A stretch of DNA of 64,000 bases from NCBI GenBank assembly GCA_964016885.1, contig CAXHJY010000643.1, positions 1 to 64,000 on the forward strand. Reading direction: 5' to 3'. Numbering within the stretch: position 1 is the first letter of the stretch; each line of letters begins with the position of its first letter. The DNA is from Eledone cirrhosa (taxonomy: Eukaryota). A program made the translations under genes and the position numbers. The notes under the pieces were generated by a model that was not told where the DNA came from, searched no databases, and worked only from the letters and a program-made list of their open reading frames with translations. Shown piece after piece: positions 2,071 to 62,762 of the stretch.

Positions 2071-2522
2071 ACGATATATTAACAAATGGAAACTATATTT
2101 ATAAAACGATATTTATTTCATTATACATATTTCAAGGACACCAAGTTAAATTATGGTGTGCTTTCATCAGATAAAATATAATATAGATCAGTTTTATAAA
2201 TAAATATTGACATACCCTTAAAGAATGCGACTATTTCTGTTGGAAGCTCCCTGGAGCTTCCAACAGAAATAGTCGCATTCTTTAAGGGTATGTCAATATT
2301 TATTTATAAAACTGATCTATATTATATTTTATCTGATGAAAGCACACCATAATTTAACTTGGTGTCCTTGAAATATGTATAATGAAATAAATATCGTTTT
2401 ATAAATATAGTTTCCATTTGTTAATATATCGTATTTTTACTCCAATAACTTGTTGAGTGCTTTATATGAGTTATAAAAATATTTGTTTGTTGTATCCCAA
2501 CAATTTAAATAGAACTTCTACA
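2071..2522 (+). mobile_element. Family A hammerhead fold-back element (180 bp inverted arm + forward copy + ~90 bp tail), Penelope pLTR-like
   Basis: Perfect inverted repeat 2071-2250/2253-2432 with 2-nt loop; unique tail 2433-2522 ending CTACA; (TA)n on both sides; related copies at 3997-4101 and 48747-49035. Confidence 0.85.
2327..2387 (+). ncRNA. Type I minimal hammerhead ribozyme, family A (mirror copy on - strand 2116-2176)
   Basis: TTTTAT CTGATGA AAGCACACCA-loop-TGGTGTCCTT GAAA TATGTA TA|ATGAAA: intact core, 6-bp stem I (one G-U), 9/10 stem II. Confidence 0.8.
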
Positions 2523-2809
2523 TATATATATATATATATATATATATATATATATATAAACGACTATATGTCGAATATCGAGTTTGAAAGGCGAGTGTAT
2601 TAGAATTCATAAATTAATTGGAAGACCTCGGTTCAAGGAAGTTGTTAAAACAACAAAATAATGTCAATGGCTTAATTTTACCTCAAACGATAGAGATCAG
2701 TAGCTAGAAGTGTGTTGGTTCGTAGAAGAGATAGGAAGAAATAAGAAAGGGATAAAATAGACATTATATTGTCTCCTCAACTTTTAGACCGCCATTGGTT
2801 TCGACAATT

Positions 2810-3890
2810 TAACTAAAATAAAAATTTAATTTAATTTAATTTAATTAAATTAATAGACATTGGGGTTCTCACCAAACATTTTCAGTTTTTTTTCAAAGAG
2901 ATGTAAAAGGAAAACTGAAAAAGATTAATAGGACACCTTACATGTATCTCCCAGAACAGGATAGAAACCCCGGGCCAGGAATGAACCTCCAGACTAGAAT
3001 CTCACCATCTCTGGTACTTCCCACTAAGCCACCGAGACTGCTATAAAGATCTATAGAAAATTCATACTTATAAACCTACTACCAAAAAAAAAATTAAATT
3101 AACTAAATTAAATTAAATTAAATTAAATTAAATTAAATTAAACAAAATAAATAGACATTGGGGTTCTCACGAAAGTTTTTCAGTTTTTTTTAAAGAGATG
3201 TAAAAGGAAAATTGAAAAAAACATTAACAGGACACCTTAGATGTATCTCCCAGTCAGGATTGAACCTCCAGTCTGAGATTGAAACCCCAGACCAGGATCT
3301 CACCATCTCTGGTACTTCCCACTAAGCCACCGAGACTGCTATAAAGATCTACTGAAAATCAATATTTATAAACCTACTTTCAAAATAAAATTAATTTAAT
3401 TAATTTTAATTAAAAATAAAATAAAATAAATAGACATTGGGGTTCTCACGAAACTTTTTCAGGTTTTTTCAGAGATGTAGAAGGAAAATTGAAAAAGATT
3501 AATAGGGCACCTTAGATGTATCTCCTAGCAAGGATTGAACCTGAGTCCAGGACTGAACCTCTGTCCAGGATTGGATCCCCGGGCCAGGATTGACATCTCT
3601 TATAAAAAAAAATGAAAAGGTTTCGTGAGAACCCCAATGTCCATATATTTTATTTTATTTTTAATTTAATTTAATTTAATTAATTTTATTTTGAAAGTAG
3701 GTTTATAAATATTGATTTTCAGTAGATCTTTATAGCAGTCTCGGTGGCTGAGTGGGAAGTACCAGAGATGGTGAGATTCTGGTCTCGGGGTTCGTTCCTT
3801 GGCTGGAGGTTCAATCCTGTCCCGGGTGTTCAAACCCTGCTGGGAGATATTAGTAGAGTGTCCTATTAATCTTTTTCATTTTTTTTTTCT
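2810..3890. repeat. ~280-300 bp tandem repeat (about 3 direct units + 1 inverted) with tRNA-like Pol III cassette
   Basis: ATAGACATTGGGGTTCTCAC at 2853, 3151, 3430, inverted at ~3626; A box TGGCT(T/G)AGTGG and 2-3 B-box-like GGTTC(A/G)ATCC per unit. Confidence 0.8.
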
Positions 3891-3996
3891 AATTTATATA
3901 TATATATATATGTGTGTGTGTGTGTGTGTAACCACTCGACCTTCTTTTACTTTATTTTATATATATATATATATATATATATATATATATATATAT

Positions 3997-4101
3997 GCAA
4001 AAGTTTTATTTAAAATTGTTGGGTTACAACGAGTAAATATTTTATAACTGATATAAAAGCACTCAACAGTTTTTGGAGTAGGTTTACGATATTAAACAAA
4101 T
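3997..4101 (-). mobile_element. Diverged 3' tail fragment of family A
   Basis: Reverse complement aligns by eye to 2416-2520; flanked by (TA)n. Confidence 0.75.
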
Positions 4102-4566
4102 ATATATATATGAAACTTATATTCTAATTCAGGGCATATTGAGTACTCAATGCCTTCTCAGGTCCTGCTAAACCAGAAAAGGGCAGTCATTTTAATGAGG
4201 TCAATATATTTAAATATATTCAGGTTGAACATTTGAAGTTAACTGGTTTAGGAACGGGGGGAGGAGATGGAAGTGCGGGGGGGGGTCAACAAGGTGAGGC
4301 GTGGGTGGGGTGAGGGTTGGTGGAGTCTGCAACGTAGAGTTTGACTTAGGTTGGGTTTGGTAAGATACAAGAATTTGGTGGGGGGGGGGGGGGTATTTAA
4401 ATCTTAAACTGAAACGAAGGGGGATGAGAGTTGGGGAGACTGAGGAGGAGGAGGAGGAATGGCTGAATATGATGTGGGAGTAGAACAGGGGAAAGAAAAA
4501 GAGAGAGAAGGGATTGAGAGAGAAAAACAGACGGACAGACGGTCGGAAACCTTTATAATTAATATT

Positions 4567-4698
4567 AGAGATTAGCTTTGCCTTTCGTCCTTAACGTGTT
4601 GATAAAATAAAGTACCATTAACGCACTGGGGTTCGATTTAATAGACTCCCTACCCCCCTAAATTGCTGGCCTTGTGCCTCTCTCAGACACCGTTATTT
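4567..4698 (+). mobile_element. SINE 3' half, related subfamily with longer centre
   Basis: GATAAAATAAAGTACCA..CACTGGGG..AAATTGCTGGCCTTGTGCC. Confidence 0.7.
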
Positions 4699-5000
4699 CT
4701 ACAAAAAAGAATTATCACAGATTAATCTTCTGTCACAAAAATAACAAAACAAAACCCCGGACAATATTTCACGAGAGTAAGAGTAATCCCCCCTGATTAA
4801 AGGAAGACCATTAATATTCCATCACACGATCTTGCTTTTGTTTGTTTGTTTTTTCTTGTGGGGTGGGAGGTGATGGTGGGGGAGGGGAAGGGTTGTTTTG
4901 TTTTGTTTTTATTAAAAACTATTGATGAATATTTCAGCTCAGTTTCTTTCAATGTGATTGATTTTCTATTTCTTCTACACATCCTAAAATTAAGGGACCC

Positions 5001-61424: not shown

Positions 61425-61585
61425 CTGACATTATCAAGCCTTATCTCTACAGACAGGTTGTCTCCTCTCTCTATTCTACCGCAACTACAACGGTCTCTGC
61501 TCCTCAGAACTGGTGGTCTCCTACTATCACCACCTCAGTCTCTGGACCACAGACAGATTATCTCACCTTTCCATATCTACCACTA
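61425..61585 (+). pseudogene. CR1/Jockey-like LINE ORF2 C-terminal fragment
   Basis: SPLSLFYRNYNGLCSSEL. Confidence 0.6.
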
Positions 61586-61640
61586 TATATAGCGGAGTTT
61601 TAAATAAACCTGAATCAACTGAATATGGCCTTCGATCTTT

Positions 61641-61745
61641 TGCCGAGGTTAACTTTGCCTTTCATCCTTACGGGATCGATAAAATAAAGTACCAGTAATA
61701 CACTGGGGTAATTGCTGGCCTTGTGCCAAATGTAGAAACAATTAA
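61641..61745 (+). mobile_element. 5'-truncated SINE, same family
   Basis: GCCGAGGTTAACTTTGCCTTTCATCC..TTGCTGGCCTTGTGCC. Confidence 0.8.
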
Positions 61746-61765
61746 TATATACATATATATATATA

Positions 61766-61850
61766 TTATCCCGGGTTCAATCGGGGGCTTCCTGATGATT
61801 TCTCCCGAATGAAACAGTTCTAGTGCTGTAGAAGCCTTTCTATATTAAAC
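61766..61850 (+). mobile_element. Family G element with hammerhead 61786-61836, preceded by an inverted piece of its own 3' end
   Basis: GGCTTC CTGATGA TTTC TCCC GAAT GAAA CAG TTCTAGTG CTG TA|GAAGCC; 61766-61784 is the RC of the family end seen at ~25842-25860. Confidence 0.82.
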
Positions 61851-62734
61851 ATATATATATATACTACCACTATCACCACACCACCACCTCTACCTCAATC
61901 AACGCCATCATCACCACTACCATCACCATCTCTACCACCAACACCACCATCACCACTACCACCACCACCACTATCTCCTCCTCCCACCACCACCACTATC
62001 TCCTCCTCCCACCACCACCACTATCTCCTCCTCCCACCACCACCACTATCGCCTCCTCCCACCACCACCACTATCATCTATTCAAATCAAGACAACTTCC
62101 TCTCCCATCGATAAAACCATCTTACTGTTAACTGTCGGCATCCAAACACACACATACACACACACACATACACACACACACATATACACACACACACACA
62201 CACACATATACACACACATACATACACACACACACATATACACACACACACACATACACACACACACATACACACACACACATATATACACACACACACA
62301 TACACATACACACACACATACATTCACATACACACACATACATTCACATACACACACACATAAACATACATATGCACAACGTATATATGTGCATACATAC
62401 ATACATACATACATACATACATACACATATAAATATGTGCATTGACGCATACATACATATATATATATATGCAACAAACATAGATGTATAATTATGCACA
62501 CCTATATTCTTCATATACACACATGTACGCATGCAAAATGACATTTATGTATACATGTATGTTTATATATATTTGCTCATATATATTTGCACACATACAC
62601 ACACACATACACACACACACACACACATATATATATATATATATTGAAAAATTGAACGGGAACAAAACAGAGAGGCAGTACGAACAAAGGTTTATTAGTT
62701 TCACGCTTTTGAGAGTGGGGTGGTGGTGGGGAAC

Positions 62735-62762
62735 GACGTTTCGGGCATAAGCCCTTCTTCAA
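62735..62762 (-). ncRNA. Hammerhead-like motif at truncated end of a Penelope-like fragment (~62645-62762)
   Basis: TTGAAGA A GGGC TTAT GCCC GAAA CG TC; stem I lost at the (TA)n junction. Confidence 0.55.

Follow-up and report, generated by a model that had tools for sequence, protein, structure and literature searches.

Hammerhead ribozyme motifs at TA-rich sites of the Eledone cirrhosa genome: probable ends of Penelope-like elements and a non-LTR retrozyme

Introduction

The stretch of DNA considered here, called the window, comprises the first 64,000 nucleotides (nt) of contig CAXHJY010000643.1 in the 3.0-Gb assembly of Eledone cirrhosa (GCA_964016885.1; 1,796 contigs). It is AT-rich and dense in simple repeats. 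A preliminary description, made from the letters of the window, named thirteen places at which type I hammerhead ribozymes lie in short elements without an open reading frame (ORF). These elements were taken for non-autonomous families that consist of nothing but the pseudo-long terminal repeat (pLTR) of Penelope-like elements. From the present analysis, it is very probable that the motifs are the pLTR hammerheads of Penelope-like elements, six of the seven families being coding (five of Hydra type and one of Neptune type). The short copies would be complementary DNAs (cDNAs) of the elements' own RNA, placed into (TA)n by a predicted GIY-YIG endonuclease together with a reverse transcriptase (RT).

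Hammerhead motifs of the window

A CUGAUGA...GAAA...UH core in type I order is present at all thirteen places. In the following, the position of a motif is that of C3 in the core with its strand, and end offsets are counted from C3. A first strict descriptor retrieved nine motifs (2170-, 2333+, 21653-, 25167-, 25433-, 28780-, 41250-, 41393+ and 48846-), compared with a mean of 0–0.05 in two sets of 60 block-wise dinucleotide shuffles and none in the reversed or complemented window. A second descriptor retrieved eleven, gaining 14668-, 32890- and 61792+ and losing 25433-, while its 40 shuffles gave 0.025. At least one descriptor is passed by twelve of the thirteen motifs; the motif at 11853- fails both, its stems I and II being weak. 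A scan of the window against Rfam gave no match at the gathering score, to hammerhead or other models, and the best 150 of 803 matches in the E-value list were to simple repeats, with no hammerhead model among the matches listed.

Covariation was analyzed in copies collected with sequence-only patterns that left the stem unconstrained, and was compared with 2,000 partner shuffles. In the group formed by families A and B (37 distinct rows), 226 of 296 stem II cells are paired, where the shuffles reach at most 207. Compensatory swaps between A-U and G-C occur at positions 1, 2, 3 and 5 and between U-A and C-G at position 6. For stem I, 128 of 162 cells are paired (at most 124 in the shuffles). 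Lying between covarying pairs, position 4 of stem II is paired in none of the 37 rows (mostly C.C; also C.U, C.A and U.C). This unpaired position, present in A, B, E and their relatives, is a conserved internal mismatch, which may stand in for the usual loop contact. Both the motif frequency relative to dinucleotide shuffles and the covariation among copies thus support the preliminary description, and the window motifs are confirmed as real type I hammerhead folds.

Stem III is short and palindromic in families A, B, D, E and F. A palindromic stem III is a published sign of dimeric hammerheads (PMC4209133), which suggests that cleavage, as predicted from these sequences, would take place as a dimer or with the help of a protein. 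Hammerheads related to these cleave poorly on their own (PMC4209133), one Penelope-like hammerhead requires its protein for cleavage (PMC11167929), and among nine Xenopus hammerhead dimers one was reported to cleave (10.64898/2026.07.22.740005).

The stems differ between families yet still pair, as had been described; the thirteen motifs form seven families, not eight. By the places first named, these are A (2116, 2327, 48792), B (21593, 28720, 41190, 41387), C (11809, 61786), D (14638), E (25117), F (25391) and G (32831). The copies are collected in Table 1. The arms of the family A pair are identical over 178 of 178 nt, with (TA)n on both sides, and those of the family B pair match the terminus of a long copy at locus L031 with 98.8% and 99.6% identity. 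In the family C copy with its core at 61792, the start lies 6–7 nt upstream of the core and follows the end of an inverted tail. Relative to its family, the G copy has a stem III shortened by a deletion, and because of this deletion a tight pattern built from it matched that copy alone.

Table 1. Hammerhead copies and related fragments in the window.
Feature	Position	Strand	Remarks
Family A head-to-head pair	2071..2521		short arm 2071-2248 (-, core 2170); long arm 2255-2521 (+, core 2333); ~90-nt tail on long arm
A-related subfamily, 3' fragment	3993..4131	-	no core
Family D 3' fragment	5930..5986	+	no core
Family C copy	11727..11856	-	core 11853; diverged, weak stems
Family D copy	14638..14722	-	core 14668; 3' part lost; fits a Neptune-type element end
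Family B single arm	21548..21723	-	core 21653; between TA runs; 5' end at the B pile-up
Family E copy	25071..25230	-	core 25167
Family F copy with tail	25235..25717	-	core 25433
Family C copy with tail	25728..25870	+	G12-to-A core change; absent from the preliminary description
Family B arm and inverted half	28683..28911	- (arm)	core 28780; half ends just past the first core box, at the start of an L1-like element
Family G pair	32658..33194		main arm 32658-32933 (-, core 32890); inverted arm 32937-33194 with tail
Family B head-to-head pair	41150..41579		short arm 41150-41320 (-, core 41250); long arm 41324-41579 (+, core 41393); 86-nt tail on long arm
Family A copy	48745..49036	-	core 48846; inverted tail piece 48949-49036
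Family C copy	61766..61849	+	core 61792; U.U at stem II base; 6-bp stem I
Eighth, core-variant half hammerhead	62646..62763	-	truncated by a TA run at the first core box; read by eye

The L1/Tx1-like element that adjoins one B arm occupies 28912-32100 and carries a broken ORF1, an endonuclease and partial RT frames (E ~1e-7 to human LINE-1 ORF2) as well as internal repeats of its own 3' end. It starts directly after the first core box of the B arm, and the remainder of the arm was not found at the other end of the element.

Copy number and TA-rich targets

Copy numbers in the genome were counted with exact patterns, which give lower bounds and whose reversed-pattern controls were all 0. There are at least 22,156 matches for C, 11,715 for B, 3,565 for A, 3,203 for D and 9 for F. 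Family E has at least 2,774 matches with up to 2 mismatches, and family G has 2,453 candidates, of which 40 were scored. The very high copy number foreseen from the window is thus borne out. At L354-L355 (G000:C1:83.68-83.69 Mb), twelve tandem units of 1.07–1.11 kb repeat the C 3' region, each with a TATA box, hammerhead, tail and internal microsatellite. An excess of one strand among the genome-wide C matches (~2,000–2,900 copies) suggests larger C arrays elsewhere.

The second descriptor was also run on 59 ten-kb stretches at round coordinates on 24 contigs, a 590-kb sample in which small chromosomes are over-represented. It retrieved 45 motifs in 22 of the 59 stretches, compared with 0–2 in five shuffles and 2 in the reversed sample, and the motifs fall into 18 clusters. 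Since nine of them come from one array, the density is given as 76 per Mb with this array and 61 per Mb without it, for an estimated genome total of about 1.8–2.3x10^5 hammerhead motifs. At 172 per Mb, the window lies above the genome average. A (TA)4+ run is present within 200 nt downstream of 69% of the 45 motifs, compared with 17% of 2,402 background positions, in agreement with the TA flanks and targeting first described.

Published hammerhead totals, obtained with other descriptors, are >6,000 for Acropora, ~5,000 for Mytilus, ~9,000 for Xenopus and up to 120,000 for axolotl. A search of the open literature, with subscription papers, Repbase and Dfam outside it, found no count for any cephalopod. 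The main text of a 2026 curated octopus repeat annotation is without the words hammerhead, ribozyme, Hydra and retrozyme (PMC13282606).

Coding parents of families A, B, C, E and F

Many family B matches lie as minus-plus pairs 0.1–5 kb apart, the longer intervals containing a protein frame. Open frames of 821 (L031), 738 (L042) and 775 codons (L048) lie upstream of the B hammerhead. At L031, downstream of an open frame for an RT and a putative endonuclease come, in this order, a 1.06-kb untranslated region (UTR), the hammerhead, a short end piece and a tail of 86 nt; in the tandem copies at L016, L018, L093 and L107 the tail continues into the 5' region of the next ORF. Related ORFs lie upstream of the matching hammerhead in families A (L206, L214, L202, L204), C (L200, L201, L198), E (L195, L196) and F (L207), the last locus combining a Hydra-type ORF with a 3' region that matches the F copy of the window. 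The telomerase-like RT described below for B is represented in the A, C, E and F frames by pieces of 30–64% identity. When family D is included, long coding copies are 92–99.6% identical to the best window copies for A to E and ~82% for F.

ORFs with RT and GIY-YIG-type regions flanked by the same termini, which the preliminary description proposed to look for, were thus found for six of the seven families, and a Penelope-like origin holds. The description as ORF-less applies to the window copies and not to families A to F, which have coding long copies. Likewise, six of the seven families are ends of coding elements in the same genome and so are not pLTR-only non-autonomous families, a description that is retained for G.

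The predicted structure of the B protein has a mean predicted local distance difference test score (pLDDT) of 79.8, and its two best structural matches are telomerase RTs (E 7.5e-8 and 2.1e-7). Eighteen database relatives are 29–38% identical to it, while a profile search of the sequences of solved structures gave 0 matches. Hydra-type motifs are seen as DKT in the B and C frames, the only ones examined that extend over this site, and as a CxCX5C linker in all five (A, B, C, E, F). The putative endonuclease motifs CxxC..E and CxH are present in A, B and C with no CCHH. At the RWK position, which reads RWK in most database relatives, B has RWT and C has RWR. By these motifs, families A, B, C, E and F fit the ends of Hydra-type Penelope-like elements.

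The Hydra clade of C-terminal endonuclease-bearing (EN+) Penelope-like elements (Craig et al. 2021, PMC8557442) includes Hydra-1_Obim of Octopus bimaculoides, which has a hammerhead and a preference for (TA)n. As in the families described here, in which the endonuclease is putative, published members have a single ORF for the RT and a C-terminal endonuclease, the DKT motif, CxCX5C, no CCHH, and CxxC and CxH near the end. Also shared are a canonical hammerhead near the 3' end, insertion into (TA)n, inverted copies with a truncated 5' end and a tail on one arm. A U.U at the base of stem II, as in family C, is frequent among the hammerheads of the clade. In contrast to the published list of 27 families, one of them from a cephalopod, at least five families are found in this one genome, four at 10^3–10^4 copies each. 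The 3' UTRs are longer here (1–2.7 kb), the tails are 70–100 nt compared with 30–40, and RWT or RWR replaces the RWK of the clade. The unpaired C.C or C.U at stem II position 4 of the A/B group and E was not seen in the published Hydra table, and the published hammerhead of Hydra-1_Obim differs from those of all seven families.

As a kind, these elements are not new, since Hydra elements in (TA)n, head-to-head pairs, tails, solo pLTRs and retrozymes that lack long terminal repeats (non-LTR retrozymes) are all found in published work (PMC8557442, 10.64898/2026.07.22.740005, PMC7229834). The set consists of one retrozyme and of Penelope-like families that are new as families but, being of Hydra or Neptune type, belong like the retrozyme to kinds already known.

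Other Penelope-like ORFs of different types were observed near sampled copies (L197:1475-3905, minus strand; L203:3-2012, plus strand; L047:3190-5442, plus strand). Because these differing ORFs lie near the sampled copies, several clades share these TA-rich spots.

Families D and G

The D hammerhead is carried by 19 of 20 loci that have an upstream GIY-YIG frame. The parent frames (L276, L279) contain a CX4CxxC linker and CCHH in the endonuclease, and by these motifs D fits the end of a Neptune-type Penelope-like element. The linker and the two Cys and two His of the GIY-YIG domain are shared with the Neptune clade; inverted pairs are, in contrast, rare in D, and its placement is by motifs only. 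The minimal palindromic stem III and the extra nucleotide after A9 are shared with published minimal hammerheads (Cervera and de la Pena 2014, PMC4209133). The Neptune-type element at L047 was considered as the D parent and rejected for want of a DNA match; the parent was reached via L117.

Family G is built of ORF-less units with a period of 534 nt at L356 and 539–540 nt at L193, the longest Met-started frame being 97 amino acids. Downstream of each hammerhead, the sequence passes through the tail and joins that which precedes the following hammerhead, as in a circularly permuted unit. Three contig sets from one sample span the whole unit, and TA-bounded loose ends lie at the tail end. An ORF-less tandem unit with a type I hammerhead fits the published definition (PMC7229834); thus, as judged from its organization, G is a non-LTR retrozyme. 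Retrozymes of this kind have been linked to pLTRs (10.64898/2026.07.22.740005). Like the animal non-LTR retrozymes reported previously (Cervera and de la Pena 2020, PMC7229834; Li, Clavereau and Pollet 2026, 10.64898/2026.07.22.740005), G lacks an ORF, has one type I hammerhead and occurs as head-to-tail dimers, partial tandems and many monomers. Its unit is longer than the ~170–400 nt given in these reports for invertebrate retrozyme circles. Unlike reported retrozymes, G carries the full Penelope signature of tail, inverted arm and TA target. Families A to F fall outside the retrozymes, which have no coding capacity, since all six have coding long copies.

An array of ORF-poor 556-nt units was observed at L264 (G000:C3:255.004-255.010 Mb), with one hammerhead in each unit and nine passing the descriptor. 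By the same organization, it is a second non-LTR retrozyme family, with no blastn relation to G.

Ends of short and long copies

Two discrete 3' ends, 70–100 nt apart, were found per family, and in inverted pairs the tail is on one arm. Family E, whose reference copy is without a tail, showed one. The 3' ends lie at ~+101 or +187 in B, +88/98 or +189 in A, +67 or +136 in C, and ~+245 or beyond +287 in G.

For family C, the 5' ends were read from the first 70 places of the pattern listing, which give 81 distinct arms; here as in the other end counts, the arms of one inverted pair are counted separately. Counted from the core, the 5' end lies no farther than 13 nt in 58 arms, at 14–29 nt in 2, at 30–60 nt in 1 and beyond 60 nt in 20. 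As for what adjoins them, the upstream TATA surroundings are present in 22 arms, an inverted copy adjoins 44 and a TA run adjoins 5; the other 10 are unclassed. Genome-wide, 12,811 C matches extend from -5 compared with 4,961 from -14, the latter partly in arrays. In long C copies of diverged subfamilies, a TATAAATA box is retained 36–39 nt above the core (at 30 nt in one subfamily); CCAGATT, which resembles an initiator, is found at -6 and CCAAT further upstream. The C TATA box is located 30–31 nt above the pile-up of 5' ends, and a pyrimidine tract with CAG is found at -5.

Pile-ups of 5' ends were also observed in B (17 of 57 at -65 to -72, peak -69), E (8 of 26 at -70 to -73, peak -72), G (5 of 22 at -40 to -46, peak -41) and A (16 of 51 at -82 to -88, peak -86/-88). 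Each of the five pile-ups coincides with an A, or lies no more than 1 nt from one, in a context that agrees with YYANWYY at 6 or 7 of 7 positions; this context was chosen post hoc and has a background of 7% and 1.5% per position, respectively. Short copies are therefore not randomly truncated, and their 5' ends pile up at a family-specific spot. This is new: no genome-wide pile-up of 5' ends at a start site was found in the open literature as delimited above.

No pile-up occurs at the cleavage site among copies anchored below it (31 B, 88 A, 44 C, 25 E, 40 D and 14 G), and a trace of in vivo cleavage was thus not seen in six families. Clusters at -164 and -829/-870 in B and at -147 in C were rejected as alignment breaks. 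A candidate TATA box 31 nt above the A pile-up was also discarded, since the ends at -78 arise from mismatches in the reference copy and the true peak is at -86/-88.

Other repeats in the window

An abundant interspersed repeat of ~190 bp, which looks like a short interspersed nuclear element (SINE), is present at 197-383, 4569-4629, 17513-17712, 34978-35167 and 61642-61747 and also inside the F reference copy. At 2750-3890, a ~290-bp repeat with (AATTT)n spacers forms three direct copies and one inverted copy; no hammerhead core was found in any of them. Two pieces of one element with a common end, each adjoining TA/TATG runs, lie at 9160-9760 and 40160-40220, and RTE-like frames at 18305-18655 and 50000-50190.

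Discussion

The architecture common to the coding families is ORF, 3' UTR, hammerhead, short 3' end, tail and next ORF. Transcription would start in the upstream pLTR, shortly above the hammerhead. Reverse transcription would then begin at one of two internal sites just below the hammerhead and proceed to the 5' end of the RNA. The predicted product is a promoterless copy of 70–290 bp that enters (TA)n at a nick, either alone or paired head-to-head with another. Longer copies would derive from the 3' end of read-through RNA by ordinary 5' truncation. In this manner, many promoterless short copies could arise without any non-autonomous master, and G, which has the same insertion signature, is likely mobilised in trans.

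pLTR promoters have been published (PMC2377424), as have TATA and initiator (Inr) elements in a pLTR (PMC3846280). The closest precedent is PAc, a Poseidon element of Anolis carolinensis (Frangieh et al. 2024, PMC11167929), for which two internal RT start sites, traced in vitro, account for the signature of two 3' ends and define the tail. PAc also shares an uncleaved RNA template, an AT-rich target and no RNA ends at the cleavage site. The published account maps RT starts by way of the 3' ends of insertions, and is not known to report a corresponding accumulation of 5' ends where transcription starts. In E. cirrhosa, the template was likely uncleaved RNA, given that the 5' ends lie away from the cleavage site. 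It is about as likely as not that a large share of the ~2x10^5 motifs were copied directly as cDNA from the 5' leader of Penelope-like mRNA, between the transcription start and one of the two RT start sites.

The main alternative concerns the 5' ends. The short copies may be ordinary 5'-truncated copies, the pile-ups marking hot spots of template switching or microhomology in place of starts, at a palindromic hexamer in B and E and, in C, at a splice acceptor or where stem I folds back. The B and E ends do pile up at CATATG, next to TA targets, and the 44 C arms that abut an inverted copy are over half of the 81. The pyrimidine tract and CAG of family C would suit a splice acceptor, and the end of a Drosophila virilis intron has been mapped to the 5' end of helix I (PMC4209133). 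On the other hand, C copies bounded by plain TA runs (5 of the 81 arms) likewise start at -3 to -11, the short C copies share no upstream exon, a conserved TATA box lies 30–31 nt above the C pile-up, and the YYANWYY context recurs at all five pile-ups, with the post hoc choice noted above. Overall, this alternative is possible while somewhat doubtful; for families B and E it is plausible, for family C it is less so.

Several further observations weigh against the reading of the short copies as cDNAs of coding Penelope-like elements that start at a promoter. No canonical TATA box is found at -30 in A, B, E and G, the hexamer at the B and E pile-ups is itself palindromic and TA-like, and D shows no clear 5' pile-up. 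An extra G before the 5' end is expected from a reverse-transcribed cap, as in L1. Such a G precedes 13 of 37 ends at the pile-ups (p=0.01 against 18%, 0.11 against 25%), a weak signal in a set in which three long copies were misfiled as short. Pfam identified 0 families in the B protein and in five frames of the window, and no GIY-YIG structure is among the matches listed in the fold search; because of this, the endonuclease is called from its position and motifs. The clade names likewise follow motifs and not a tree with reference proteins, and B (~3.7 kb) and C exceed the <3 kb usual for Hydra. No autonomous parent of G was found among 23 loci and 4 longer stretches, the sole places searched. 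As for the folds, stem I of C gives modest covariation when taken by itself (126 of 175 cells paired, reached by 18 of 2,000 shuffles), and the partner shuffles ignore kinship among copies.

The view of the preliminary description, in which each short element is a pLTR-only non-autonomous family of its own, derived from short masters and mobilised in trans, is improbable. Short copies do prevail and their ends are fixed, G is of this kind, and the 556-nt array at L264 and the 1.1-kb C array at L354-L355 could be taken for others. Nevertheless, six of the seven families have coding long copies at the identities given above, the short C copies are without the TATA box and differ in their 5' junctions, and lengths above the pile-up extend continuously into the ORF. 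A chance origin of the folds in DNA rich in A, T and repeats has practically no probability: the missing Rfam match, several A-U-rich stems and minimum-energy folds that are often not the hammerhead fold would agree with it, but it is refuted by the shuffles (11 motifs compared with 0.025 in the window, 45 compared with 0–2 in the genome sample) and by the compensatory changes in the stems, and the position and variants of the motifs match published Hydra hammerheads.

The Hydra clade, known from few families, has radiated in this genome, with near-identical recent copies and an open frame. At 61–76 motifs per Mb, the density is new relative to published reports. Family B offers a predicted intact RT of an unstudied clade along with the predicted ends of its RNA. 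The piled-up ends bear on how pLTRs, tails and solo repeats are made and on what the hammerhead does in Penelope-like elements. If the ends are what they are proposed to be, the genome would be a population-scale in vivo record of internal initiation, which has so far been shown in vitro for one element. The origin of 'solo pLTRs' and retrozyme monomers would be explained, and the start site, the RT start sites and the target would be readable from sequence for many families.

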